Shown: positions 5,962 to 18,604 of the stretch, piece by piece
Numbering within the stretch: the first letter of the stretch is position 1
Layout: each line of letters starts with the position of its first letter
Source: Candidatus Helarchaeota archaeon
GTDB taxonomy: Archaea > Asgardarchaeota > Lokiarchaeia > Helarchaeales > RDOG01
NCBI GenBank assembly: GCA_019058315.1
Contig: JAHPZH010000011.1
Span: forward strand, 1 to 31,445
Direction: 5' to 3'
Length of the DNA stretch: 31,445 bases
Notes under the pieces: model-generated
What the model saw: the letters and a program-made list of their open reading frames with translations, nothing else
Told to the model about the DNA's origin: nothing
Databases searched by the model: none
Translations under genes and position numbers: made by a program

Positions 5962-6813
5962 ATGTCTGAAGATGAAGAATTAACAAAAAAGGTAAAAGAT
6001 CTTGCACTTGAACTTGGAGCGGATAAAGTTGGAATAGCTGATGCCACATTGGCTGAAGATCCTCCACATGGTCATGGTAATCCTTCGGCTATGATGAAAG
6101 ATGCTAAGACCGCAATTTCATTGGTTTTGGCGTACCCCGATGCTACATATGGAATTGATATGACAGATGATCTTATTATAGGTGGAATCTATGTAGCCAC
6201 TCAAGAATTTATGAATACTGAGCTTAGTCGAATAGCTTTAAGGCTAGCAAGATTTTTAGAAAAAGAAGGATATAAAGCAGTAGTAATATCACCTGAACTT
6301 CCTAGAGATGAAAAAAGATGGGCAGGTGCCATTTCTCATCGATATATGGGGCAATTGGCTGGTGTAGGTGAGATAGGTCAAAGTAATTTATTACTTACTC
6401 CAGAATGGGGTCCGAGAATACAATTAACTACAGTTATTACAAATGCACCTTTAAAAGTGGACGGTCCTAAATTAATTGATAAAGTTTGTAAGCATTGTAA
6501 CACATGCGTAGAAAAGTGTCCACCTCGTGCAATAGGGGCAGAGAATTATCCTCCGTACAATTTTAATATAAATAGATGCTTCTGGGGCGTTATGGGCTGG
6601 TATCGGCTAACAAAAGTCGAGGAACCTCCAAAAGATTGGGTGGATGCTAGACCAACAGCCATGATAATGGTACCGAAATACGAAAGACAATATCCACAAA
6701 TTAAAGAATACCAAGAACTCGAATCAAGACTTGGTTGGTATCCTTTATGTGCAGAGTGTGTAGTCCACTGTGGTGTAGGAATAGAAGCTGCTGAAAAACG
6801 TCAAAAGAAATAA
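5962..6813 (+). CDS. QueG / reductive dehalogenase-like cobalamin-binding 2x[4Fe-4S] protein
   Basis: LGADKVGIA, ISHRYMGQLAGVGEIGQSNLLLTPEWGPRIQL, CKHCNTCVEKCP and C...CAECVVHC. Confidence 0.85.
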   Translation: MSEDEELTKKVKDLALELGADKVGIADATLAEDPPHGHGNPSAMMKDAKTAISLVLAYPDATYGIDMTDDLIIGGIYVATQEFMNTELSRIALRLARFLEKEGYKAVVISPELPRDEKRWAGAISHRYMGQLAGVGEIGQSNLLLTPEWGPRIQLTTVITNAPLKVDGPKLIDKVCKHCNTCVEKCPPRAIGAENYPPYNFNINRCFWGVMGWYRLTKVEEPPKDWVDARPTAMIMVPKYERQYPQIKEYQELESRLGWYPLCAECVVHCGVGIEAAEKRQKK

Positions 6814-6865
6814 TTTCTCTTTTTTAATTTTTCTTATTTTAAAAAATAAAAGGAAAAAAAACAGT

Positions 6866-7276
6866 TTATTTTTCTTTAAATTGATCTTTATGTAGAGTCT
6901 TCCAACCACCGCGCAATGCATTATAGCCTTTTATTATAAATAGAAATATTACAACTCCAATTACAACATACATCAAATATTGGACGAATGTTCTTATTGG
7001 TTCAAGTACTTTTGTATCTAATATATAATAAATTAAGAAATGTGGGTCGGGTCTTACCAAAATAAATGTCCATTTGAAATTAGAACTAAATTTATAGACC
7101 GAATGCTCAAATAGATTACCAATAACTATAGTTGCCAGAATTAGGAGTCCGGCATTAATTGCAACTAAAAGAGGATCCTCATTAGATAAGATAATAAATG
7201 CAAGTACTATTATACCAAGCATACAAGCAAGGAATATTAACATCGGATCGAAACCGAATATTTCAGCACGTACCAT
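6866..7276 (-). CDS. Hypothetical membrane protein (about 3 TM)
   Basis: Hydrophobic segments; GAGGTG SD; starts 9 nt after the upstream stop codon. Confidence 0.7.
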   Translation of the reverse strand: MVRAEIFGFDPMLIFLACMLGIIVLAFIILSNEDPLLVAINAGLLILATIVIGNLFEHSVYKFSSNFKWTFILVRPDPHFLIYYILDTKVLEPIRTFVQYLMYVVIGVVIFLFIIKGYNALRGGWKTLHKDQFKEK

Positions 7277-7285
7277 ATTTACACC

Positions 7286-7888
7286 TCACATCATTAATTT
7301 TCCAACTTTGACTCCTAATAGTGCTCTTGATATTGGGGACATTTTAACTCTGCCCTTAAGTAATAATAACATTGTTCTAGCAAGTCCTTTCAAACGATGG
7401 ACAATAGGACCAACTACAAGGTCTCCGAGACCCCCGATGTCCCAATGTGAACCATACATTACAACATCAGCATCACGATGCGCCCAATCCTTGTACCTTA
7501 ATTTAGAGTTTCCACATTTAGGGCATTTAATTTCAACAATTTTTTTAGTTGGTGTCCCTAATATCGATTCTTCACCTTCTGGGCGAGGAGGAAGTTTAAT
7601 TGCTTCTTCACGAGTTGGTAGGTCTTTGTAAAAACCTCTCCATTTACATTTTTTATTCATACATTTGACCATTGGAGTTGGATAACTTTTGTATCTTAGC
7701 CAAGGTTTCTTTTCTCCACCGACTTCAACTTCTTCAAAGAATAAGACTAAAGCTTCAGTTAAATTGGGAAGAGTAATTTGTGCTACCGTCCCGAAAAGGT
7801 CTTCCATGCATTTTTTTTGTTCATCTTTTGTTTTGCTTCGAATGCCTGCGAGCATCATCTCGCCGATAACTTCTGCTGGACTTTTCAT
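7286..7888 (-). CDS. Hypothetical protein, possible SCP2-like fold with inserted zinc ribbon
   Basis: CMNKKC and CPKCG pairs. C-terminal DADVVMYGS...LLLLKGRVKM resembles the SCP2 ADxxxxGS...GKxKI pattern. GAGGT SD. Confidence 0.55.
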   Translation of the reverse strand: MKSPAEVIGEMMLAGIRSKTKDEQKKCMEDLFGTVAQITLPNLTEALVLFFEEVEVGGEKKPWLRYKSYPTPMVKCMNKKCKWRGFYKDLPTREEAIKLPPRPEGEESILGTPTKKIVEIKCPKCGNSKLRYKDWAHRDADVVMYGSHWDIGGLGDLVVGPIVHRLKGLARTMLLLLKGRVKMSPISRALLGVKVGKLMM

Positions 7889-8000
7889 TAATTGAACCTC
7901 TCATTAATTTTCGAATAAAATAATCAGTTAACAATTGGTAAATTTTTCGAATTTTAAAATTTTCCAATTCAAAAAAGAGATAATATTCAAAGAAAATTAA

Positions 8001-8270
8001 TTATTCTTCTATCAAACCAAGTTTTTCAAGTTTTGAGACGAATTCTTTAACATCTTTAAGCGCAGTTTCTTTATCTACCTCGAATTCCGCATAAATAATA
8101 TCGGCCAAAGCTTCTATTGTAGTTTCTTTTTTCAAATTCTTTAGTAATATAGCTCCTGCTTCATTAGCTTCAAAGAATTTTGAAGTTTCATAGTCAACTA
8201 CGACCGCACCTTCAGTGCGTGCTATATAACTTCCTTTTTCTTCCATATCAACCTCTGATTTTAGCTTCAT
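8001..8270 (-). CDS. PqqD-family RiPP recognition element (RRE)
   Basis: 89 aa; AVVVDYETSKFFEANEAGAILLKNL...TIEALADIIYAEFEVDKETALKDVKEFVSKLEKLGLI fits the 3-beta/3-alpha PqqD consensus; GGAGGT SD upstream of the ATG. Confidence 0.9.
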   Translation of the reverse strand: MKLKSEVDMEEKGSYIARTEGAVVVDYETSKFFEANEAGAILLKNLKKETTIEALADIIYAEFEVDKETALKDVKEFVSKLEKLGLIEE

Positions 8271-8296
8271 TCATAAACCTCCAACTTGAAAATTAT

Positions 8297-8407
8297 TTAA
8301 AAAACCGAACCGAAAGAATCACTCTTCATTGTATCGGTAATACCTTTTCTTTCTTCAATTTTTGGTTTTTCATATTTTTTTTTCTTTTTAGTGGGTTCAG
8401 TTGCCAT
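8297..8407 (-). CDS. Putative RiPP precursor peptide, 36 aa: MATEPTKKKKKYEKPKIEERKGITDTMKSDSFGSVF
   Basis: Hand-translated ATG (8407) to TAA (8297); not in the ORF track. YEKPKI matches the YxxPx[LI] RRE-binding leader motif. Ends 26 nt upstream of the RRE gene on the same strand. Confidence 0.8.
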   Translation of the reverse strand: MATEPTKKKKKYEKPKIEERKGITDTMKSDSFGSVF

Positions 8408-8472
8408 AATATTCACATTTTTTAAGTTATTTGAAAAATAATTTTAATTTAATGAAATAAGCTTATCGATAT

Positions 8473-8488
8473 TATTAAAATTTTTTTC
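8473..8488 (-). promoter_or_regulatory. Candidate BRE-TATA promoter for the peptide-RRE unit
   Basis: Minus strand GAAAAAAA-TTTTAATA about 65 nt upstream of the peptide ATG. The AT-rich background makes this weak. Confidence 0.35.
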
Positions 8489-8505
8489 TCATAAATGTTA
8501 TAAAT

Positions 8506-8976
8506 TTAAAATTCAAATTCGTCCATGTGTCCAAATTTAATACTATAATCAAGCATCCAAAGCTTTTTCGGAATAAAATGTAAAACAGTTCGTTTTTCAT
8601 TAAGCGGAATGAGTTCAAAAACTTTATATTTTTTTACCATTATATCCCAAGCACTTTTAAATTCTGATTTTGGGTATTGAAGAACTTCTGCACTGGCTTG
8701 TACTTGAAGACCTTTTATATTTTTTACATCATCCTTATTTATATTGACTACATCATGGACTTCATAAAATACTTGGGGATTTTCTAGAATATTTTTAACT
8801 TTCCTCGATCCAATCCATGTAGATACAAAAACTTCCATTTCTTTATTAGCGTATTCAAGGCAAGCACAGTGGGGCATTCCTGTTTGACTTGCTGTCGCCA
8901 TAGTTAAAAGGTTATGAGATTCAAGATATACAATTGCTTTTTCCAAAATATGCTTTTTATCCTTATTTTTACTCAT
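8506..8976 (-). CDS. Pyridoxamine 5'-phosphate oxidase-like (split-barrel, FMN/F420-binding) protein
   Basis: LTMATAS..GMPH, SRKVKNILENPQV and KGLQVQASA motifs. ATG at 8976 is preferred because the 9048 start overlaps the upstream gene. Confidence 0.85.
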   Translation of the reverse strand: MSKNKDKKHILEKAIVYLESHNLLTMATASQTGMPHCACLEYANKEMEVFVSTWIGSRKVKNILENPQVFYEVHDVVNINKDDVKNIKGLQVQASAEVLQYPKSEFKSAWDIMVKKYKVFELIPLNEKRTVLHFIPKKLWMLDYSIKFGHMDEFEF

Positions 8977-9016
8977 ATTACCATCTTTTTTTGATTTAGT
9001 TATTTTAAAATAATTA

Positions 9017-10336
9017 TTAGGATTTTCGTAAAATTGCATTAACAGCAAGTTTGGCAGATCTTACGGGCGCATCAATTCCACATCCAGTTCCTTTAACCGT
9101 ATCTCCACAGAAATATAAATTCTTTAGAGGAGATACCACATCTGGTTTTGCTTTCCAAACTTGGTAAGGTCTTCTATGAACTCCATCGATTAAGCGTTTT
9201 GGTAAAACTGGATTTTGGAACCAATCACAATTTTTTTCCCAGTCATAATCCGGAAATAGTTCTAAAATTTCATTGATAGAATTTTTTGCTAAAAAATTCA
9301 TTTTTTTTCGAGTCATTGAATGATATGGTTCTACAATTTGGCCTCCTGTAAGTAAATGCTTTCCAGGAGGAACAATACTTCTAGTGAAATTCGAAGGTTG
9401 CCACAATTGAAGTGTGGTATGATTAATGGGAGTATCTAAGACTGAAATATAAGCTTTTTCAGTATAAAGTGGTTCGTTTAACCCTGCAACAAGACCTATA
9501 CCAGCAAAGTAAGATTCATCTTCTAAATAACGAACTCGTTTCACAAACCATACAGGAAATTCGTCTTCTGGAATTAATTTAAAATTTTCCCAAACAGGTA
9601 GGGAAGAAATAATGATTTTAGAGCTCACTTCTTTATTTTCTTTTCCATAAATTATCTTTTTAACCTCTTTATTTTCAACAATAACTTTTTTTATAGATGT
9701 ACTCCGGTAGATTTTTCCACCTAAAGCTTCTATTCTTTCTGCTAATGAATTTGAAAAAGAAATGAATCCACCTTCAGGATAACCTGCGCGAATTCCCGAG
9801 CGTATCCAGTCTTGAAATCGGCGAATTACACAACCTGCACTTTGTTCATTGGGATCACCTAAACTGGTCATAATATAACTATGTATAAAAAAGAATTCTT
9901 TTGCCTCCTCGTTATCTACTCTTTCTTCAATCCAATTTTTAAATGTTACATTATCGAGTGCTTCAGTTTGTTCAAAAGTCATTGTAGAAATTTCTGAATA
10001 TACACGATCCACTGCTTTTTTTGGAGCTCCAGAGCCAATCATTTGGCTTTCTTTTTTTAATTTTTCTTTAAAATAGATTAACATATCCTCGAAGGGGTAG
10101 ACTTTTACTTCTCGAGCTCCAACAAATTGAATTACTTTGCATACATCTGATTCTTGACCACTAGGGCATATATGACTTCCAAAATCAATTAAATAATCAT
10201 TCATGTTTAAAGTAGTGGCTCTACCTCCTAAAAATTGAGATTTTTCGAACACAGCTACTTCAAAACCAGCTTTCGCAAGAAGTGCAGCTGCACTTAATCC
10301 TGCTATTCCAGCACCAATAACAATAACATCGACCAA
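9017..10336 (-). CDS. FAD-dependent oxidoreductase, phytoene desaturase / amine oxidase superfamily
   Basis: DVIVIGAGIAGLSAA...EK...GGRA, YPEGG and LKNLYFCGD..GTG.GI; TTG start. Confidence 0.9.
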   Translation of the reverse strand: MVDVIVIGAGIAGLSAAALLAKAGFEVAVFEKSQFLGGRATTLNMNDYLIDFGSHICPSGQESDVCKVIQFVGAREVKVYPFEDMLIYFKEKLKKESQMIGSGAPKKAVDRVYSEISTMTFEQTEALDNVTFKNWIEERVDNEEAKEFFFIHSYIMTSLGDPNEQSAGCVIRRFQDWIRSGIRAGYPEGGFISFSNSLAERIEALGGKIYRSTSIKKVIVENKEVKKIIYGKENKEVSSKIIISSLPVWENFKLIPEDEFPVWFVKRVRYLEDESYFAGIGLVAGLNEPLYTEKAYISVLDTPINHTTLQLWQPSNFTRSIVPPGKHLLTGGQIVEPYHSMTRKKMNFLAKNSINEILELFPDYDWEKNCDWFQNPVLPKRLIDGVHRRPYQVWKAKPDVVSPLKNLYFCGDTVKGTGCGIDAPVRSAKLAVNAILRKS

Positions 10337-10626
10337 TTAAATATACTCTCCTAAACCTCTTAATTTAAATTTAAAAAATGAATTTGAATATTTTTTCTTG
10401 TAACTCTTTGTAGTTTTTTTTTGAAAGTCTTTTAGATATATTCTATCAAATTTTAAGACTCATAATTATATTTAATTTTAGTTGTCTAATTAGCGAAATC
10501 CCTTAAAGTGTTCAAAATTTTGACTTTAATTTTAAGCAATAAAATAAAAATTTAAAATATAAACCCAAAACACCTTAAAAGCTCTAAAAGTAAAAAAAAA
10601 AATTATGATAAATTAATAGCTAGTTT

Positions 10627-11058
10627 TTAAGACTCTAACTTAAGAATTATTTTATTTCCTTCTACTTTTAATTCGTAGGTTTGAATATCATATGTTTTTA
10701 CTGGATCAACTAATGTTTTTACATACTTTAAAAAATTTAGCATGTCTTTAGGAAGTTTATCTGTATCTTTTAATTCTTCAGACTCAGGTTCTTTAACCTT
10801 TTTTCCCGTAGTAACATCAAAATGAGCAAAATGAAAAGGACAAATTACATTTTTCCCGACCAATTTACCCATCGAAAGTAGAGCATTCATATGACCACAT
10901 CTATCATCAATAGCATAAAACTTCCCATCAACATTAGCGATTAATATATCCATCCCTTCTACTTGGACATTTTTCATTTTTCCTTTTTCTATATCACTCA
11001 CATTAGCTACTTCTATATATATGGGTTCTTTCTTAACTGCTTGCAATATACGTCTCAT
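10627..11058 (-). CDS. Rieske [2Fe-2S] ferredoxin
   Basis: CGH...CPFH ligand boxes and FDVTTG. Confidence 0.9.
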   Translation of the reverse strand: MRRILQAVKKEPIYIEVANVSDIEKGKMKNVQVEGMDILIANVDGKFYAIDDRCGHMNALLSMGKLVGKNVICPFHFAHFDVTTGKKVKEPESEELKDTDKLPKDMLNFLKYVKTLVDPVKTYDIQTYELKVEGNKIILKLES

Positions 11059-11287: not shown

Positions 11288-12646
11288 TTATCTAAATGCA
11301 TAGAATCGTTTAATAAGTTTAGTCATAGTTCTTATTTCTTCACCTTGTCTCTGAGAGAATTTTAAATATTCAGAAGTTAATATATCGTCAACATAGATTG
11401 GGAAAATTCTAGAGAGAGCTGCTGATAATATCAGTTCGAATGCACGTCTTTCAGCTATACTTAGATCATGTTTTTTTCCTAATCGTGTTCCATCTTTAGC
11501 AAAAACTGGATTTTTTTCTAATGGAAGGTTTAATATTTCATTACATAATTCTGTCCCAGGGATTGGTTCTGTAATACTAACAGTATAATCACTTAGAACA
11601 AGCTCTTCAACAAGCTCTTTAGTCATATTGAAATCTTCTTCAGATTCTCCGGGATATCCAACGATAAAAGCACCATCTACTTTTAATTTTCCATTATATT
11701 TTCGTACTCTATTAATTGTTTCTTTTATTTTTTCAACTCTTATTCCTTTTCTCATTTTTTTAAGGATTTTATTACTACCTGATTCAATACCAAAAATTAT
11801 CAAACCATATGTATATTTAAGAATAGCCTCTACGATCGAATCGGGTATCATATCAATCCTCAAATCCGGTGCTGCTAAATTTTGTGGTCCTGTAACTTTA
11901 CTAATAGCCTTTAGCATTTGTATCACTTTCTCTTCTTCTATCTTTACCCCTTGTTGACATCCATAGAGAGCAACATTACCAGTTCCGATAGCAATTTTTT
12001 TTGCTCCTGCTTTTTTAAATGCTCTCACTTCAGTTACTAAACTATTTAAAAGACGAGTTCGTATCTTAGTGCCAAATAATTTTGGTATTAAACAAAATGA
12101 GCAATTTGCCGCACATCCCCTATGTGTTTCTATGTAAACACTAGCTCCACGTATACTTTGTGAGCCAATATCTTCAGGAATTTTTGGTAAAGGTTTTTCT
12201 GATATATCAGCAGGTTCTCTTCGTTTTGTTATTACCGTTTTACCATTACTTTTAAATGCAATACCATCCACATTTTCTAAATCTTTAGAATTTAACCATG
12301 TATCAACCAAGTCTAGAACAGTATCTTCACCCTCACCGATAACTACTACATCTACTTCGGGAATACAATTGAAAATGAATTGAGGTGAAATTGAAATTGG
12401 TCCACCAATCACAATAAACTTACCAGATTTTTTAAGTTCAGTAATTAGAGATTTTATTTTTCCTGTAAGATGCAAAGTGGAGCTTAAACTAAATCCTACG
12501 AAATTAGAGTTTTGTGCTTCGGATAATATTAATTTACGGGAAAGCTGAGTTTTATACCCCTTATTTTCTAAAATTCCAGCAATCGTCATTGCCCCGTAAG
12601 AGTAAATATCATCTGGTGAGAATATTGTAATATTGGGTTTTTCCAT
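11288..12646 (-). CDS. Cobalamin-dependent radical SAM methyltransferase, MJ0865 / MCR glutamine C-methyltransferase (MgmA)-like
   Basis: N-terminal IYSYGAMTIAGIL, B12-domain GGP and GEGE, IRGASVYIETHRGCAANCSFC (CxxxCxxC), PDLRID, GIESGS, FIVGYPGE and EPIPGT. Confidence 0.8.
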   Translation of the reverse strand: MEKPNITIFSPDDIYSYGAMTIAGILENKGYKTQLSRKLILSEAQNSNFVGFSLSSTLHLTGKIKSLITELKKSGKFIVIGGPISISPQFIFNCIPEVDVVVIGEGEDTVLDLVDTWLNSKDLENVDGIAFKSNGKTVITKRREPADISEKPLPKIPEDIGSQSIRGASVYIETHRGCAANCSFCLIPKLFGTKIRTRLLNSLVTEVRAFKKAGAKKIAIGTGNVALYGCQQGVKIEEEKVIQMLKAISKVTGPQNLAAPDLRIDMIPDSIVEAILKYTYGLIIFGIESGSNKILKKMRKGIRVEKIKETINRVRKYNGKLKVDGAFIVGYPGESEEDFNMTKELVEELVLSDYTVSITEPIPGTELCNEILNLPLEKNPVFAKDGTRLGKKHDLSIAERRAFELILSAALSRIFPIYVDDILTSEYLKFSQRQGEEIRTMTKLIKRFYAFR

Positions 12647-12707: not shown

Positions 12708-14090
12708 TTAATCTTTTCTATTTAAAGCTAATTTTAAGAAATTAACGGCAAAATTTGGGACGCTTGCTATGTGGATATGTAGAAACGAGGCTATTGTATT
12801 ATTTATACAAATTCCATCATTTGACCCATCAATTCCTTTTCCTCTTTTAATCTTATATCCAAAATTAGGAGTAGAAATTTTAATTATTTTTGAGTAATGG
12901 AACTCATGTCCTTTAATAGAAATATTAGGAGGTAGAAATGGATGAAATTGAGTCGTATTTCCCTCCACATAAGAAAGACCTTGCCTATTTGTCGTCATTA
13001 TTACGTCTGAGGGGAATAAATTGGCAAATTGGTATTGATCACCTGTTTTTGTGATTAATTTTGAATTTAAAATCATTAAACCTCCACATTCAGCATAAAC
13101 TGGACGATTATCTAATATAATATTTTTCAAATCCTTTAGAAAATTTACATTTTGTGATATTTCTTGGCAATAAATTTCTGGAAATCCTCCACCAATTAAA
13201 TAGCAGTCAGCCTCAGGTAAAGTTTCTCCCACTACTGGACTAAATTCTATTAATTTTGCTCCATTTTCTGAAAAAGCATCTAAGTTATCTTGATAATAAA
13301 AATTAAAGGCCGCATCATTTGCAATTCCTATTCTTATTTTTTGCTTAGATAATTCTTCATCCTTATTCCATAAAGGCTCTTTAGTTTCATTTATTTCTTC
13401 AACTTTATTTGCAATAGCCAATATTTGTTCTATATCAACATTTTCATTAATAAATCCACCCATATTTGTAATTATTTCTTGTTTTTCTTTAAATTCGGCC
13501 ATAGGGATTAAACCAAGGTGTCGCTGTTGCAATACTTGTTCCATATCATTCGGAATAGCCCCAATTACTGGAATTTTGGCATATTTTTCAATAGCAGTTA
13601 CAGTTTTTTGAGCATGTTTGTGAGTGCTAAATTTATTTAGAATAACTCCTGCGATATTTACTTCAGGATCTAATTGTTTAAAACCTAAAATATAGGCCGC
13701 AGCACTTTTGGTTATCCCTCTGATATCAATTACGAGAATTATAGGAACTTTTAATATTTTAGCAATATGTGCGGTGCTACCTATATCGTTAATTGCATTT
13801 AATCCCTCATATAATCCTCTAACTCCCTCAATAACTGCTATATCGCTACCTTTAGCTGCATGAGAGAAACTCCATCTAATTTGTGCTTCAGACATTAAAA
13901 AACTATCTAAATTTCTAGAAGCTCGGTTTGTGGCTATTGAATGATAAGAAGGATCTATGAAATCAGGTCCAACTTTGAAGGGTTGAACTTTTAGACCTTT
14001 ATAAGTTAATGCTTTCATTATCCCTGTTGCAATTGTAGTTTTTCCTACGCTACTTCCAGTCCCTGCAATTAAAATTCGTGGAGTATTCAG
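12708..14090 (-). CDS. cfbB: Ni-sirohydrochlorin a,c-diamide synthase (CbiA/CobB family); extended to a CTG start
   Basis: The in-frame upstream extension encodes PRILIAGTGSSVGKTT (P-loop). Also FKVGPDFIDP, EGVRGLYEG, RHLGL, YAECGG and GHEFHYS. Lies next to cfbCDE. Confidence 0.9.
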   Translation of the reverse strand: MNTPRILIAGTGSSVGKTTIATGIMKALTYKGLKVQPFKVGPDFIDPSYHSIATNRASRNLDSFLMSEAQIRWSFSHAAKGSDIAVIEGVRGLYEGLNAINDIGSTAHIAKILKVPIILVIDIRGITKSAAAYILGFKQLDPEVNIAGVILNKFSTHKHAQKTVTAIEKYAKIPVIGAIPNDMEQVLQQRHLGLIPMAEFKEKQEIITNMGGFINENVDIEQILAIANKVEEINETKEPLWNKDEELSKQKIRIGIANDAAFNFYYQDNLDAFSENGAKLIEFSPVVGETLPEADCYLIGGGFPEIYCQEISQNVNFLKDLKNIILDNRPVYAECGGLMILNSKLITKTGDQYQFANLFPSDVIMTTNRQGLSYVEGNTTQFHPFLPPNISIKGHEFHYSKIIKISTPNFGYKIKRGKGIDGSNDGICINNTIASFLHIHIASVPNFAVNFLKLALNRKD

Positions 14091-14884
14091 TATTGACCCT
14101 CATTGACTAATTTTCTTAATTCATCATCAGTAAGTGGAATAGGAACGTTATTAGTTTGATTTTTTAAGATTTTTTTTGCAAGTTCTTCAAAGAAATAAGT
14201 TAATTCATTTTCACCATTATTTTCAAATACAGTTATTAATTTTTTCTCGCATTTTTTAATTAGTTCGGAATATATTAAATAAGAAATGAGTGGGGACCCA
14301 ATTTTTTCTGCGAACCTTGAAATCATTACCTGTTCATCGGTTTGGGACCTTGAATTTCCAATTATTCCTGCTAAATTTGCCTTATTCTCCCGTATTCCTC
14401 TACAAATGTTATTAGCTGCAAGAATAGATAGATATTCACCACTTGTAATTATGTAAATTTCTTCCGAATAGCCCTTCCGAATTGGGACTGCAAATCCTCC
14501 ACAGACGACATCTCCTGGAACATCAAAAATAATTAAATCCAACCCATCAAATAAATTTAACTTATTTAATTCTTGGACTGCTACGATAATACCTCTTCCA
14601 GCACAGCCCACACCAGGTGTAGGACCGCCAACTTCTATACATTTAACCCCCTTGTAGCCATTAATTAAGATATTTTTTAGGTTTAATTTTTCATTCCGTC
14701 TTAGAATATCCAATACAGTTTCGACCTTCTTACCATGAGTCAGAATTATTGTGCTATCACATTTTGGATCGCACCCAATAACCATCACTTTATGACCTAA
14801 TTGGGCAGCTGCAGCGGCAAGATTTTGTCCAATAATTGATTTGCCAATTCCACCTTTGCCATAAATTGCAATCTTTTTAACCAT
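14087..14884 (-). CDS. cfbC: Ni-sirohydrochlorin a,c-diamide reductive cyclase ATPase subunit (NifH-like)
   Basis: YGKGGIGKS, GCDPK.DST, GGPTPGVGCAGRG and DVPGDVVCGGFA; directly abuts cfbD; no nifDK in the window. Confidence 0.92.
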   Translation of the reverse strand: MVKKIAIYGKGGIGKSIIGQNLAAAAAQLGHKVMVIGCDPKCDSTIILTHGKKVETVLDILRRNEKLNLKNILINGYKGVKCIEVGGPTPGVGCAGRGIIVAVQELNKLNLFDGLDLIIFDVPGDVVCGGFAVPIRKGYSEEIYIITSGEYLSILAANNICRGIRENKANLAGIIGNSRSQTDEQVMISRFAEKIGSPLISYLIYSELIKKCEKKLITVFENNGENELTYFFEELAKKILKNQTNNVPIPLTDDELRKLVNEGQY

Positions 14885-15970
14885 TTATTTGACTCCAGCA
14901 ATTTTACGTAGTTTAGCACCTAATTCGCTAGTAACAATTTTGTTTGTGCCCATAACATCTGAATGAGAAGTTAATTCAACTCCAACATATTTATATCCCA
15001 TCTCTCGTAAAGGTTCGACCTCTCTCGGACCATTTGTAATAGCTATACAATTATTTTTATTTTTCAATGGGATTGCATGAGGTAACCCAAGGAGGACTTT
15101 TAAGTCAAAATTATCATTTTTTTCGATAATTTTTGCAGCTCTTTCTCCAGATATCGGATATTCGTCTAAACCTCCCGTAATATGATTTATTTCAACCCCA
15201 TTTTTTTCAAGATCTTCTAAAATATTCTTGGAATCTTTTCTAATTCTAGCTAATCCTATATTAGGATCTAAATTTGCAATATTAAGAATTGAACAGTTAT
15301 ATTGTTGATTTATTTGATTTATCGCCAGTAATATGTCTGCAAACAAAAATGTTGTTTCTTTCTTTGAATTCAATATTATCGCAATATTTTTTTTATTTTT
15401 TATATGTTTAAAAATTATTTCTGCCAGGAAAGATTTATCATCTCCTTGACTTGGTTTAATATATTCTTTTTTTGCCATTCCAAATTCTTTTTCTATTTCT
15501 GTAGCTCTTTTTAACATTCTTTCTTGTCTTTTAAATTCATCTAAAGTTATTAAATCATTATTATATGCACTTTCTAAAGTTTTTATAGCCCCAATAGTAT
15601 TATCACCCATACAAGCATGGACTTCTACAATAATTGTTTTAACATTCAAATTAGCTTCATCTACAGCGGATTGTATTTCTTCTCCTATAATCATTGTAGA
15701 GCAAGTTCCAACTATTCCGATTAAATTCGGATTAAACATCTCTTTTATTTTCTCTATAGTATTGATTAATTTGTTTTTTGCACCGAAAATTATATCATTT
15801 TCTAATAAAGCAGTAGTTACAACTCGAACTCCATCTTCTTCTAAAAGTCGTGCAGCACGAAAGCAGCAACCAGCGGGACCATGGATGATTATCACATCAA
15901 CGTCCAGATCTCTTAAAGTATACATTGCTGCAACAATTGGGCTAGGTCTTGGGTGCATAATTTCAGTCAT
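14885..15970 (-). CDS. cfbD: Ni-sirohydrochlorin a,c-diamide reductive cyclase catalytic subunit (methanogenesis marker 13)
   Basis: MHPRPSPIVAAMYTLRD, HGPAGCCF, VGTC, GGLDEYP and TNGPR motifs. Confidence 0.93.
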   Translation of the reverse strand: MTEIMHPRPSPIVAAMYTLRDLDVDVIIIHGPAGCCFRAARLLEEDGVRVVTTALLENDIIFGAKNKLINTIEKIKEMFNPNLIGIVGTCSTMIIGEEIQSAVDEANLNVKTIIVEVHACMGDNTIGAIKTLESAYNNDLITLDEFKRQERMLKRATEIEKEFGMAKKEYIKPSQGDDKSFLAEIIFKHIKNKKNIAIILNSKKETTFLFADILLAINQINQQYNCSILNIANLDPNIGLARIRKDSKNILEDLEKNGVEINHITGGLDEYPISGERAAKIIEKNDNFDLKVLLGLPHAIPLKNKNNCIAITNGPREVEPLREMGYKYVGVELTSHSDVMGTNKIVTSELGAKLRKIAGVK

Positions 15971-15974
15971 TTAA

Positions 15975-17342
15975 TTAACCTTTCACTTTTTTTGAGATAA
16001 AAATGATATCATTTTTTCTAGCTTTCTCACATAAACTATTTAATAATTTATTTAAATCTAGAAATGAATTTCCTATATTTAAATTCGTAGAATAAACATC
16101 TGCTATAATACTTTTCCATTTTGATATAATTCTTTGAATTTTATCTATATCCACTCCTTCACAAACTGAACTATTAGCATCAAAAATTAACCATATTTTA
16201 CAATTATTTTTAATTAGATAAGAACTTATAGATTTTAGAGCGGCATTTAATGAAATTTCTCCAACTCCGGAATTAATATCGTTTAATAGCCAACAACCAT
16301 TCATTTTGGAGAGATTTAATCTATTCTTTATCCCATTAAAACCATATAAATTTTCGATAATTTTATTTTTATCTATTTTTAAAATAAGTGCAACTCCTAC
16401 ATAAGTTAGTAATGCATAAAAATATCCTGGACCAATTACTTTGCCAGAAATTGAGCCTTTAATTCTACCTCTCTGACTATCATTGGAAGAGAGGTCATAT
16501 ATGATTTCTAGATTATTACGTTTATTAAAGTTGACTAAATCTATCATATTACTCCGAATTTGACCAGTTTTTCCGAAGGAAATTAGGTAAGCCTCTGTTT
16601 TTATATTATTAATTAATTTTTTAGAATTTTTATCATCAGCATTATACAGTATTATAGAATTTTTTTTTGCAAATTCTAAGAGTTGTTTTTTACCATAACT
16701 TGCATTTTTAGTCGCATTAGCAATAGGATAATCTTCAATTATATTCGTTAATACTCCGATATCCGCTAAACCAATCCCACCTAAGCTGATTTCAAATATT
16801 CCAATATCAAATTCCTTTAAATATTTTTTAATATGGAGTAAATAAGGAGGAGCTATTTCAATTATATTCTCTAAATATTTTGAATTTCCTTCTTGAAATA
16901 ACTCTAGACCCCGACTGCTCAAACATAATACTTTTTTTTGATATGATAGTAATATTGCAAGTGTTATGGCCGTTGTAGATTTTCCGTGAGTTCCTGTAAT
17001 TTCAATAATTATTTTATCCTTTAATTGTGATTTCAATAAATATCCAACAATTTTATGAAAACTTACAATTTCAATTTCTTTTTCAATAGCTTTTGAAATG
17101 AATTGGGGGTTACAATGAACTGGAGCGATAATTGTATCTGAATTTTTTAAAGAGATCTCAGTTAAATTTTTTAAGATTTGGATTCCATTTGAATTAAATT
17201 GAGCAATTTCTTCTGAATCCATTGTATTATAAACATCAACACCTACAACATCCCATTTTTTTTTGAGTTCTCTTGCTAATATTTTTCCTCCATGGGTCAT
17301 ATCGACAATAATAATTCTATGAAAAGACAGCAATTCTCTCAA
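15975..17342 (-). CDS. cfbE: Coenzyme F430 synthase (Mur-ligase family)
   Basis: VDMTHGG, APVHC, ITGTHGKSTT, FEISLGG.G, DYPIA, D.NSG and VCEG; TTG start overlapping the apgM stop (TTGA). Confidence 0.9.
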   Translation of the reverse strand: MRELLSFHRIIIVDMTHGGKILARELKKKWDVVGVDVYNTMDSEEIAQFNSNGIQILKNLTEISLKNSDTIIAPVHCNPQFISKAIEKEIEIVSFHKIVGYLLKSQLKDKIIIEITGTHGKSTTAITLAILLSYQKKVLCLSSRGLELFQEGNSKYLENIIEIAPPYLLHIKKYLKEFDIGIFEISLGGIGLADIGVLTNIIEDYPIANATKNASYGKKQLLEFAKKNSIILYNADDKNSKKLINNIKTEAYLISFGKTGQIRSNMIDLVNFNKRNNLEIIYDLSSNDSQRGRIKGSISGKVIGPGYFYALLTYVGVALILKIDKNKIIENLYGFNGIKNRLNLSKMNGCWLLNDINSGVGEISLNAALKSISSYLIKNNCKIWLIFDANSSVCEGVDIDKIQRIISKWKSIIADVYSTNLNIGNSFLDLNKLLNSLCEKARKNDIIFISKKVKG

Positions 17343-18604
17343 GGCATAAATGTTTTTAATCGTTTTGTTGACATTAAAATTAAGTTCATCAATTTTATTG
17401 CTCTAAAAGTGCCTAAAGAACCATGAATACAATCAAGTTCTGAAAATTTTTTAACTCTATCTACCCTAACAAAGGGTCCTTTCATCAACAAAGGGATTGG
17501 ATGTCCAGAATGTTCACGCATAAGGCAAGGAGTTGAATGGTCAGAAGTTATAATAATGGTATCATCTTTATCCATATTATCTGTTATGAATGGAATATAT
17601 GAGTCTATTTCTTCTAGAATTTCTTTTTTCATTATATAATCTCCATCTTCACCTGCAATATCTGGATCTTTAATATGTAATATTGTCATATCATGATCCT
17701 TTATTAATTTTGAACCTGTTATGAATTTATCCTTTAATGTTAATTTTGATCCAGTTTTTTCTGGTCTTTTAACATCAATTCTTAAAAATCTTGCCACACC
17801 ACTATAAAGTGGATAAGAACTCATAAAAACCGGTTTTTCAAATTTATATCTGTCTGTAAAAGATTCCAAAAAACGCAAATAACCCGCACCTCTCGTTACA
17901 ATTGCATTTGCCTTAGTTGGATTATCTTTTGAAAGTTCTTCTTGAGCCGCTTTAATGAACCAATTCATAAAATTAGCTGTAATTCGTGCACTATTATGTT
18001 CCGATTCTGGTTCAACTTTTAAAATTGGTTTACCTATTTCTCTAGGATCACTATTTGTAATAGAGGATGAAGCATTTTTTCCACTAATTATTAAGACTCC
18101 ACGATATCCCTTTGTATGGTTAATATTATAATCCAAACACCAATATTTTTCGCACACAAGTTCATTAAGTCTCTTATAAAGGTTTTTAGATTTCTCTCCG
18201 CTGATTCTTCCGGCTCTTCTATCCGTTATCAAGCCATTTTCATCAATTGAAGCAAAATTAATCCTTGCAACAACCGATCCTTGTGGAACTTCAATTCCAG
18301 CACCAAGAGCTTCTAGAGATCCTCTCCCTGGATATTTATCTAATTCATATCCCAATAAGGCTAAGTGAGCAGGACCCGAACCTATTGGAATATGAGCTTC
18401 ATGTGTAGGATATATAAGACCGTTAGCCCCCTCTTCAGCTAATTTATCTAAATTCGGAGTATCAGCAGCTTCTAAAGGTGTACCGTTTAATTCTTTGACA
18501 TAAATATCAGGCATTCCATCTAATATGATGAAAATTACTTTATAATCAGATTTACGAATATAAAATTTATAATAATAATTCCAATCCTTATCTTTAATTT
18601 CCAT
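17339..18604 (-). CDS. apgM: 2,3-bisphosphoglycerate-independent phosphoglycerate mutase (archaeal type)
   Basis: ILDG..D, TPLEAA.TPNLD, GS..AHLALLGY, GRG.LEALG, DRRAGRI, D.AGEDGD, SDHSTP and HSGHP.P. Confidence 0.88.
   Translation of the reverse strand: MEIKDKDWNYYYKFYIRKSDYKVIFIILDGMPDIYVKELNGTPLEAADTPNLDKLAEEGANGLIYPTHEAHIPIGSGPAHLALLGYELDKYPGRGSLEALGAGIEVPQGSVVARINFASIDENGLITDRRAGRISGEKSKNLYKRLNELVCEKYWCLDYNINHTKGYRGVLIISGKNASSSITNSDPREIGKPILKVEPESEHNSARITANFMNWFIKAAQEELSKDNPTKANAIVTRGAGYLRFLESFTDRYKFEKPVFMSSYPLYSGVARFLRIDVKRPEKTGSKLTLKDKFITGSKLIKDHDMTILHIKDPDIAGEDGDYIMKKEILEEIDSYIPFITDNMDKDDTIIITSDHSTPCLMREHSGHPIPLLMKGPFVRVDRVKKFSELDCIHGSLGTFRAIKLMNLILMSTKRLKTFMP

Follow-up and report, generated by a model that had tools for sequence, protein, structure and literature searches.

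A cassette of two small genes was found in a 31,445-nt stretch of DNA (hereafter the window; contig JAHPZH010000011.1) from a Helarchaeota-type Asgard archaeon of the order Helarchaeales. The first gene codes for a precursor-like peptide of 36 aa, and the second for a stand-alone PqqD-family protein, i.e. a recognition element (RRE) of the type used by ribosomally synthesised and post-translationally modified peptides (RiPPs). The two genes are strictly paired across their clade and, as far as the searches reach, the family is confined to two alkane-oxidising lineages belonging to different phyla, the Helarchaeales and the Syntropharchaeia. From sequence comparison and structure modelling, we rate it slightly better than an even chance that the cassette is a fixed-function peptide and RRE module of the toolkit for maturation or activation of methyl- and alkyl-coenzyme M reductases (MCR and ACR) in oxidisers of multi-carbon alkanes.

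The peptide gene, MATEPTKKKKKYEKPKIEERKGITDTMKSDSFGSVF, is a 36-codon open reading frame (ORF) on the minus strand at positions 8297..8407, stop codon included. Its stop is located 26 nt ahead of the ATG of the RRE gene (position 8270), a distance already given in an earlier sequence-only reading of the window (the original prediction), which had also rightly placed the host among the Asgard archaea. The peptide is composed of a Lys-rich N-terminus, the leader motif K-Y-x-K-P-x-I-x-E and a conserved tail, which reads G-I-T-D-T-M-K-S-D-S-[FIL]-G-S-V-F in the close Helarchaeales relatives. The gene is present in single copy in the genome to which the window belongs (5.79 Mb, 12 contigs, 94% complete; hereafter the host genome). 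Five close homologous loci, with PqqD proteins of 69-88% identity, each contain the same 36-codon ORF. In the alignment of these loci, the peptide is nearly invariant from K7 to the C-terminus, and variation is confined to residues 2-6 and to position 32 (F/L/I). Over codons 7-36, the variable columns are distributed 4/1/22 over codon positions 1/2/3 (22 of 27 at the third), and variation is synonymous only in 19 codons, while 3 show an amino-acid replacement. The intergenic sequence on either side is free to diverge outside three blocks, GGAGG, GTG(A) and ATTTCAT. Since the third-position bias and the 19:3 codon ratio occur while the flanking DNA diverges, the alignment indicates that the ORF is a genuine gene under strong purifying selection. 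The original prediction had described it as unannotated: the ORF is indeed real and constrained, but it is only partly hidden, being listed in public gene calls at loci L007, L008, L010, L011, L056-58, L063 and L066-67. At locus L009 (Logan contig, 2081-2176) the start of the peptide is lost by a frameshift in the A-run coding for the Lys stretch, which is probably an assembly error and could also reflect homopolymer slippage in vivo. A search for sequencing runs containing positions 6800-9100 listed no RNA run, a result that speaks neither for nor against expression.

The three conserved blocks were considered as possible regulatory elements. The Shine-Dalgarno-like GGAGG (8278..8282, minus strand) lies 7 nt before the RRE start and is kept in the five close loci, implying that a single transcript serves for the translation of both peptide and RRE. 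The in-frame GTG(A) (8413..8416, minus strand) is located three codons before the ATG and is present in all five loci; its GTG at 8416-8414 could be an alternative start giving a product of 39 aa, or it could be part of a Shine-Dalgarno-like GGTG(A). The original prediction had thought a separate promoter possible for the peptide gene; the only candidate archaeal promoter element seen is the ATTTCAT block (8452..8458, minus strand), which is conserved within AT-rich sequence some 50 nt ahead of the ATG. A sigma-70 promoter scan returned 10 sites versus 8.5 expected; its consensus is bacterial and uninformative for an archaeon. No Rfam family scored over threshold in the region, the only hit being a chance one to URE2_IRES within the PqqD gene (26 bits, gathering score 70). 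The window peptide gave no match in Pfam and NCBIfam, and an NCBIfam scan of 13 family peptides at E<=10, lasso leader models included, returned none either.

The RRE gene (8001..8270, minus strand) codes for a protein of 89 aa which matches the Pfam PqqD profile PF05402 with 60.9 bits (gathering score 23.4, E 1.5e-16) and spans positions 2-67 of the 67 in the profile. The host genome has no other stand-alone PqqD. An AlphaFold2 model (pLDDT 93, pTM 0.81) displays a winged-helix fold with strands at residues 7-12, 21-26 and 31-36, and helices at 37-45, 52-62 and 67-83. The best PDB matches of the model were B1 proteins of lasso-peptide systems crystallised in complex with their YxxPxL leaders (TbiB1 5V1U/5V1V, and 6JX3; TM-score 0.78-0.86, 23-24% identity). 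PqqD and the RRE domains found in CteB and SuiB ranked next. The N-terminal strand carries a clade-specific signature, K-L-K-x-E-V-x-M-E-E-K-x-x-Y-I-x-R. The profile match and the modelled fold support each other in identifying the protein as a genuine RRE, as had been proposed for this PqqD-like gene, with a predicted fold nearest to that of lasso B1 proteins.

In order to define the peptide family, 26 loci of the RRE clade representing about 14 distinct sequences were compared, motif statistics being calculated on 13 sequences (one further locus, L061, has no PqqD of the clade). A small ORF is located directly upstream of the RRE gene in all 26 loci, every Syntropharchaeia member included. 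It ends 6-33 nt before the PqqD gene and carries the motif [YW]-x-x-P-x-[IV] in 26 of 26 cases. The original prediction had regarded the pair as a precursor-like peptide with a YxxPx[IL] leader beside its RRE, and had anticipated that orthologous RRE genes would be preceded by a conserved YxxP ORF. The same arrangement is seen throughout the clade, and the motif is the conserved core of the family, with Y12, P15 and E19 invariant across the 13 peptides (Y-x-x-P-x-[IV]-x-E). The tail follows the consensus …[VTI]-M-x-x-x-x-G-[LF]-COOH and is conserved about as much as the leader across paralogues. Family tails include …SLSSIMDGATGL, …SMSKVMEGAGGL and …TDTMKSDS[FIL]GSVF, with endings such as GSVF, VGL, INL and GGL; examples from the Syntropharchaeia are …KEYVPPKIDEWKSLDSVMESASGL, …REYCTPKVAEWQSMSKVMEGAGGL, …KPYVPPKVEEWQSLSSIMDGATGL and …EYIKPTIMEAKPRTIFGGAGGL. 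Prediction of the complex of RRE and peptide gave an ipSAE of 0.51 versus 0.02 for the best of three controls, with at least 90% contact agreement between runs and a pLDDT of at least 56 for the peptide; similar complexes have been solved, and memory of them by the predictor is possible. Of 80 solved complexes 58 reach the mark used, as do 2 of 110 mismatched pairs; the passes at 0.60 or under comprise only 7 of the 80 solved complexes and both of these mismatches. The support is accordingly rated as weak, and recognition of the leader by the RRE is regarded as likely.

The distribution of the family is narrow. A profile search in 1.84 billion representatives retrieved thousands of generic PqqDs and a handful of full-length relatives, while an alignment-seeded search returned 30 proteins with E<=2e-25, the next one being at 6e-10. 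All named members are assigned to Helarchaeota, Ca. Syntropharchaeia/Syntropharchaeales, Ca. Syntrophoarchaeum butanivorans, sp. GoM_oil, or 'Halobacteriota archaeon'. The Syntropharchaeia are oxidisers of butane and propane. Syntrophoarchaeum oxidises butane by means of alkyl-coenzyme M reductases (PMC9081873). Among 400 Asgard-phylum genomes, an RRE of the clade was detected in four, all from one order. In the seven genomes of this order, the cassette, a B12-binding radical SAM protein of TIGR04014 grade (MCR glutamine C-methyltransferase family) and a bona fide Mmp15 above cut-off were found in the same four, and TIGR04014 scores above cut-off were obtained in these four only. One of the seven genomes is devoid of McrA. 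In two others (G002 C103:30835-31227 and G004 C97:11333-11722), a single and highly divergent McrA-like gene was observed (PF02249, E 1e-8 and 1e-6). These two genomes have neither Mmp15, TIGR04014 nor the cassette, and their McrA-like genes may belong to a different kind of MCR-like system. No PF05402 match was obtained in the control genomes of M. jannaschii and M. acetivorans.

The genomic contexts point to the MCR system. In the Syntropharchaeales the cassette is multiplied to at least five paralogous copies. At loci L056-58 and L066-67, it heads an operon of the order peptide-RRE-Mmp6-Mmp5-Mmp15-Mmp15 followed by a reductive-dehalogenase (RDH)-like gene and two zinc-ribbon genes (Zn82, Zn48), with gaps of 0-66 nt. 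This operon exists in two sequence-distinct versions, and McrB-McrA are divergent from it in L056/57. Its genes scored above cut-off (in brackets): Mmp6 138 bits (126), Mmp5 220 (140), and the two Mmp15 696 and 649 (456). At L076, a contig placed in the Syntropharchaeales by the identity of its component A2, Mmp3 (333 bits, cut-off 234) is followed at some distance by peptide, RRE and A2 (TIGR03269, 650 bits, cut-off 517), and at L055 an A2-like ATPase is located directly upstream of the cassette. Other contexts are peptide-RRE-DUF460 with a uroporphyrinogen-III methyltransferase 1.9 kb away (L051-53, Syn-B), a LarC-like Ni-insertion gene followed by the cassette and two PurP-like genes (Syn-C), and a housekeeping context with Mmp6 at 5.7 kb (L062/63). 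DUF460 was rejected as a general partner, being absent from the host genome.

In the Helarchaeales, the window and its close relatives combine the cassette with the biosynthesis of coenzyme F430. Upstream of the cassette, all on the minus strand, the window contains a PNPOx-like split-barrel flavoprotein gene (8506..8976; possibly F420/FMN-dependent), the B12-binding radical SAM gene of the TIGR04014 family (11288..12646; 486.5 bits, cut-off 360), 3 kb from the peptide, and cfbB (12708..14018), cfbC (14087..14884), cfbD (14885..15970) and cfbE (15975..17342). The cfb order is the same in L006 and L007, and the close relatives (L006-L011) show the order cfbE-D-C-B, B12-radical SAM, PNPOx, peptide, RRE, a protein of 198/200 aa and a membrane protein of 136 aa. 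The PNPOx-like gene is always directly upstream of the peptide in this Helarchaeales group 1, and is absent in a second family, f3. There, the cassette is always flanked by a Cys-rich regulator with helix-turn-helix and V4R-type domains (L003 1937-2596; L004 522-1226; L005 2024-2686; L059), resembling MsvR, a redox regulator of methanogens (NF053755, E 1e-7). The regulator is adjoined by a TFB-like gene and varies in orientation. The original prediction missed both the F430/MCR setting and the restriction to alkanotrophs. It was right that the window contains no SPASM radical SAM gene, the 12 SPASM-domain proteins of the host genome being all encoded on other contigs, but its picture of radical SAM enzymes was incomplete, as the B12-dependent one was overlooked.

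Altogether, MCR-activation or F430 genes were found within 6 kb of the cassette in at least 5 of about 8 independent contexts, three of them in the same tight operon, where a rough, not computed, estimate would expect such a gene in 3-10% of random 12-kb windows. In methanogens, the 'MCR activation operon' contains Mmp5, Mmp6, Mmp15 and A2, together with Mmp17, Mmp7 and Mmp3, and an activation complex of McrC/Mmp7/Mmp17/Mmp3/A2 has been described (bioRxiv 10.64898/2026.03.18.712670; PMC12176620). In line with this operon, the Syntropharchaeia cassette heads Mmp6-Mmp5-Mmp15-Mmp15 or abuts A2 and Mmp3, and the Helarchaeales cassette co-occurs with Mmp15, A2 and TIGR04014. In contrast, neither PqqD nor a small peptide has been reported from model methanogens, be it in their operon or in the complex solved by cryo-EM. 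Relative to that set, the cassette would be an addition peculiar to Helarchaeales and Syntropharchaeia. The nearest relatives of the Syntropharchaeales A2 outside the class include Helarchaeota and other alkanotrophs, which is consistent with a shared, mobile ACR toolkit. The backbone of the RRE tree is unresolved, with outgroups on long branches, and therefore no direction of transfer can be claimed.

From these observations we infer leader binding, tail modification, a partner enzyme and a role in ACR biogenesis. A ribosomal peptide of about 36 aa would be bound through its K-Y-x-K-P-x-I-x-E leader by the discrete, lasso-B1-like RRE, which would hold the leader as an added beta-strand. The conserved C-terminal tail would then be presented to an ACR maturation or activation enzyme or complex, which would modify or use it. 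Like those of PqqA and MftA, the product would be a factor derived from a peptide and serving a fixed function, rather than a variable antimicrobial, since the tail is as conserved as the leader, as in cofactor precursors; the guess of a fixed-function, cofactor-like peptide made in the original prediction fits this unusual conservation. Candidate partners would be the adjacent B12-radical SAM enzyme and the PNPOx-like flavoprotein in the Helarchaeales group, and Mmp6/Mmp5/Mmp15 with the RDH-like Fe-S protein, or A2, in the Syntropharchaeia. The partner may thus differ by lineage.

The main rival explanation involves no chemistry on the peptide. The product would be an unmodified small subunit or assembly factor of 36 aa, forming a heterodimer with an RRE-like adaptor. 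The pair might, for instance, tether or chaperone one of the parts of the activation complex of ACR, or act in the delivery of F430. We consider this rather unlikely, even if it is the strongest of the alternatives. No maturase travels with the cassette, the host genome encodes neither a B2 protease nor YcaO, and the tightest operons hold genes of the activation complex instead of classical RiPP enzymes. The conservation of the whole peptide save residues 2-6 would suit a structural partner as well. On the other hand, the characterised stand-alone PqqD-family proteins (PqqD, MftB, lasso B1) to our knowledge all deliver a peptide to a modifying enzyme, and the tail, ending in small residues and one hydrophobic residue and modelled with low confidence (pLDDT 56 for the peptide), resembles a presented substrate more than a folded subunit. 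The likelihood decreases further over the other alternatives, from a secondary-metabolite RiPP through a lasso remnant to a chance ORF.

An ordinary secondary-metabolite RiPP, a signal or antimicrobial matured by an enzyme encoded elsewhere, would make the proximity to MCR and F430 genes coincidental or the result of shared horizontal transfer. The 12 SPASM-domain proteins of the host genome would be possible maturases, and several cassette contexts have no MCR gene. This explanation is nevertheless improbable in view of the frequency of MCR-activation and F430 genes around the cassette compared with the rough expectation, of the distribution limited to two alkanotroph lineages, and of the tail, which is conserved across paralogues, unlike the variable cores of antimicrobial RiPPs.

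The likeness to lasso systems required closer consideration. As with TbiB1 and its TbiA leader (5V1U/5V1V, 6JX3), a discrete RRE of about 90 aa with three strands and three helices is encoded directly downstream of its cognate peptide, which carries Y-x-x-P-x-[IL] at equal spacing. In contrast to lasso B1 proteins, the RRE of the window clade has an additional conserved N-terminal strand. The NCBIfam lasso_PqqD models remained below their cut-offs (in brackets): NF033530 50.6 bits (70) and NF033536 33.6 bits (80). The transglutaminase-like lasso protease B2 (PF13471) gave no match at E<=0.001 in the host genome and its gene was found in none of the fetched loci. An Asn-synthetase-like cyclase (C) was called beside no cassette, no PF00733 search having been made given the confounding housekeeping AsnB. 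YcaO (PF02624) was not found in the host genome either. When the lasso register is applied, the 'cores' (SDSFGSVF, VDGFDVGL, GATGL, GAGGL and similar) measure 5-10 residues, and Thr is nowhere seen at position -2, which is occupied by Met, Phe or Leu. The tails have no Asp or Glu at core positions 7-9, so that such short tails cannot form a lasso ring. A canonical lasso system was thus rejected on the missing B2, the scores below cut-off and the inability of the tail to form a ring, in agreement with the original prediction. The cleavage after K28 and the 8-aa core proposed there are not supported, the register having been transferred from lasso systems, and no protease is known for the cassette. 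A functionless remnant of a lasso cluster, i.e. A and B1 after loss of B2 and C, appears very improbable. The structural and NCBIfam similarities are indeed highest with lasso B1 proteins, and the register Y(-17), P(-14), I(-12), with G(-8) in family f3, fits. The peptide, tail included, is however under strong purifying selection, the cassette is conserved and present in at least five paralogous copies in the Syntropharchaeales, and no locus has a B2 or C gene.

The cassette was also compared with pathways for peptide-derived redox cofactors. Like PQQ (PqqA/PqqD/PqqE) and mycofactocin (MftA/MftB/MftC), it pairs a small precursor, whose C-terminal part is conserved instead of hypervariable, with a stand-alone PqqD-family chaperone. 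The precursor genes of these two pathways are very short and often missed, and their products serve the cell's own enzymes. Unlike them, the cassette has no adjacent radical SAM/SPASM partner, and its neighbourhood consists of MCR activation and F430 genes instead of dehydrogenases. The E-x-x-x-Y motif of PqqA is absent from the 13 sequences, whose tails have no Glu/Tyr pair, and the tails also lack the C-terminal G-V-Y of MftA. In the absence of these signatures and of a PqqE- or MftC-type neighbour, a PQQ or mycofactocin pathway was rejected. In pearlin and 3-thiaglutamate biosynthesis, a small carrier peptide is recognised by an RRE and the chemistry takes place at its C-terminus. By analogy, the cassette may share with such scaffold-peptide pathways a conserved small peptide, RRE-type recognition and a C-terminus as the site of chemistry; in contrast to them, no PEARL/LanB-like or TglHI-like enzyme was seen at any cassette locus.

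As an explanation of the small ORF, a chance reading frame without a functional peptide, or a cis-regulatory leader acting on the PqqD gene, has a negligible probability: the shortness of the ORF, the low-complexity A-run behind the Lys stretch and the frameshift in L009 would speak for it, and the codon-position pattern, the 19:3 ratio of synonymous to replacement codons, the amino-acid conservation across two phyla and the lack of an Rfam match speak against it.

Several observations weigh against assigning the cassette to ACR maturation. No modifying enzyme is constantly adjacent to it, and no unambiguous MCR gene lies within reach in Syn-B, Syn-C or f3, the latter having the MsvR-like regulator only. 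The evidence linking it to ACR is confined to neighbouring genes and to shared occurrence. In terms of independent lineages, the seven Helarchaeales genomes count as about four, and the shared occurrence is inseparable from the presence of the whole ACR system, so that it shows only that the cassette tracks ACR. The cassette was not found in classical methanogens, and no named hits came from Alkanophaga, Methanoliparia, Bathyarchaeia or Hadarchaeia; hence it cannot be a general requirement of MCR or ACR. The RRE tree does not resolve the monophyly of the Helarchaeales and Syntropharchaeia proteins, and the prediction of the RRE-peptide complex is a weak pass only. The PNPOx-like gene could instead be a member of the tetrapyrrole cluster, and the adjacent B12-radical SAM enzyme scores as a McrA glutamine methyltransferase, while the peptides have no conserved Gln. 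The peptide is for this reason an unlikely glutamine-methyltransferase substrate, although other C-methylation could still occur. It was also considered as a mimic of an ACR subunit segment and rejected, since shuffled sequences equalled its best local alignments to 21 ORFs, taken from the three ACR regions, in 5-82 of 100 cases.

A bolder version of the maturation reading is proposed only tentatively, as we think it less probable than not by a clear distance. The pair would be a lineage-specific and essential part of the machinery which assembles or reductively activates the multi-carbon ACRs of Syntropharchaeales and Helarchaeales. Its product could be a peptide-derived cofactor, or a Met-bearing factor handling F430 or its nickel. 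Operons of multi-carbon ACRs are usually devoid of mcrC and mcrD (PMC9584954), and the nickel ligand of ethyl-coenzyme M reductase is a Met instead of the canonical Gln (PMC9081873). On this bolder version, expression hosts would be without the pair, which could partly explain why ACRs resist heterologous activation.

The remaining neighbours of the cassette in the window were analysed as well. A Rieske [2Fe-2S] protein and an FAD-dependent protein similar to amine oxidases and CrtI are encoded at 9017-11058, between the B12-radical SAM and PNPOx-like genes. They are absent from all close relatives, implying a recent insertion peculiar to the host genome, and the FAD oxidase is not supported as the candidate maturase that it had been. 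Downstream, 113 nt from the RRE gene, a protein of 200 aa (7286..7888, minus strand) displays an SCP2 fold with an inserted four-Cys zinc ribbon, as originally proposed: the model (pLDDT 87.5) and the invariant C76, C81, C122 and C125 agree. It belongs to a four-member family in the host genome (relatives at G000 C2:195742-196332, C3:546640-547221 and C9:135534-136109) which is found across the order. The protein is likely a carrier of hydrophobic ligands, and may be that of an alkane or fatty-acid metaboliser; an ESM Atlas feature search gave uninformative scores (<=0.83). It is followed by a gene for a membrane protein of 136 aa (6866..7276, minus strand) and by an RDH/QueG-like Fe-S protein gene (5962..6813, plus strand), which is convergent with the strand of the cassette. 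This block of three genes was rejected as a set of dedicated maturases, as it is also present in G001, a genome without the cassette; the earlier nomination of the SCP2 and membrane protein pair finds no support for the same reason. The SCP2 protein is an unlikely maturase also because its fold is that of a carrier and not of an enzyme.

The RDH-like protein of the window is 41% identical (E 4e-79) to the orthologue-grade copy closing the peptide-RRE-Mmp operon of the Syntropharchaeia, and a paralogue is located beside an ACR operon of the host genome (G000 C5:382722-383555). This RDH/QueG-like Fe-S family of about 280 aa recurs beside ACR and Mmp operons in Helarchaeales and Syntropharchaeia with 41-53% identity (e.g. 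L056 5896-6735 and L066 13696-14535) and may represent an undescribed ACR accessory protein. The two small Cys-rich zinc-ribbon proteins of 82 and 48 aa close the Mmp operon (L056 6741-7154; L066 14557-14969), and a homologue of the 82-aa protein is encoded in the host genome 3 kb from Mmp6-Mmp5 (G000 C2:124651-124860). At the other end of the F430 cluster, which is complete (cfbB, cfbC, cfbD, cfbE), the gene of an ApgM-like metalloenzyme (17339-18604) overlaps the start of cfbE by 4 nt, and is followed by a uroporphyrinogen-III synthase gene (18686-19483). As its place before cfbE is kept in L006 and L007, the ApgM-like gene may belong to the F430 cluster and not to glycolysis. The host genome contains three McrA-type genes, and no YcaO was found in it at 94% completeness. 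If YcaO is truly absent, the ACRs of this organism would be without the thioglycine which YcaO-TfuA introduces in methanogens.

Pairs of RREs and precursor peptides are already known, and it is the occurrence of such a stand-alone pair in MCR activation and F430 operons of multi-carbon alkanotrophs which appears to be undescribed. No paper was found which combines PqqD with Helarchaeota or with Syntrophoarchaeum, and the papers on MCR activation are silent on the cassette. MCR and ACR enzymes control the biological turnover of methane and short-chain alkanes. Their assembly, modification and reduction to the active Ni(I) state are a long-standing problem, and no role has yet been assigned to Mmp5, Mmp6 and Mmp15. 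The cassette is a concrete and testable candidate for a missing lineage-specific factor in butane- and propane-type alkanotrophs of two phyla, and may have been carried between Halobacteriota and Asgard archaea together with the ACR toolkit. If the assignment is true, it would for the first time connect an RRE-dependent peptide with a central catabolic enzyme in archaea instead of with secondary metabolism. In practice, the cassette offers two small genes to include when expression of active ACRs is attempted in model methanogens.

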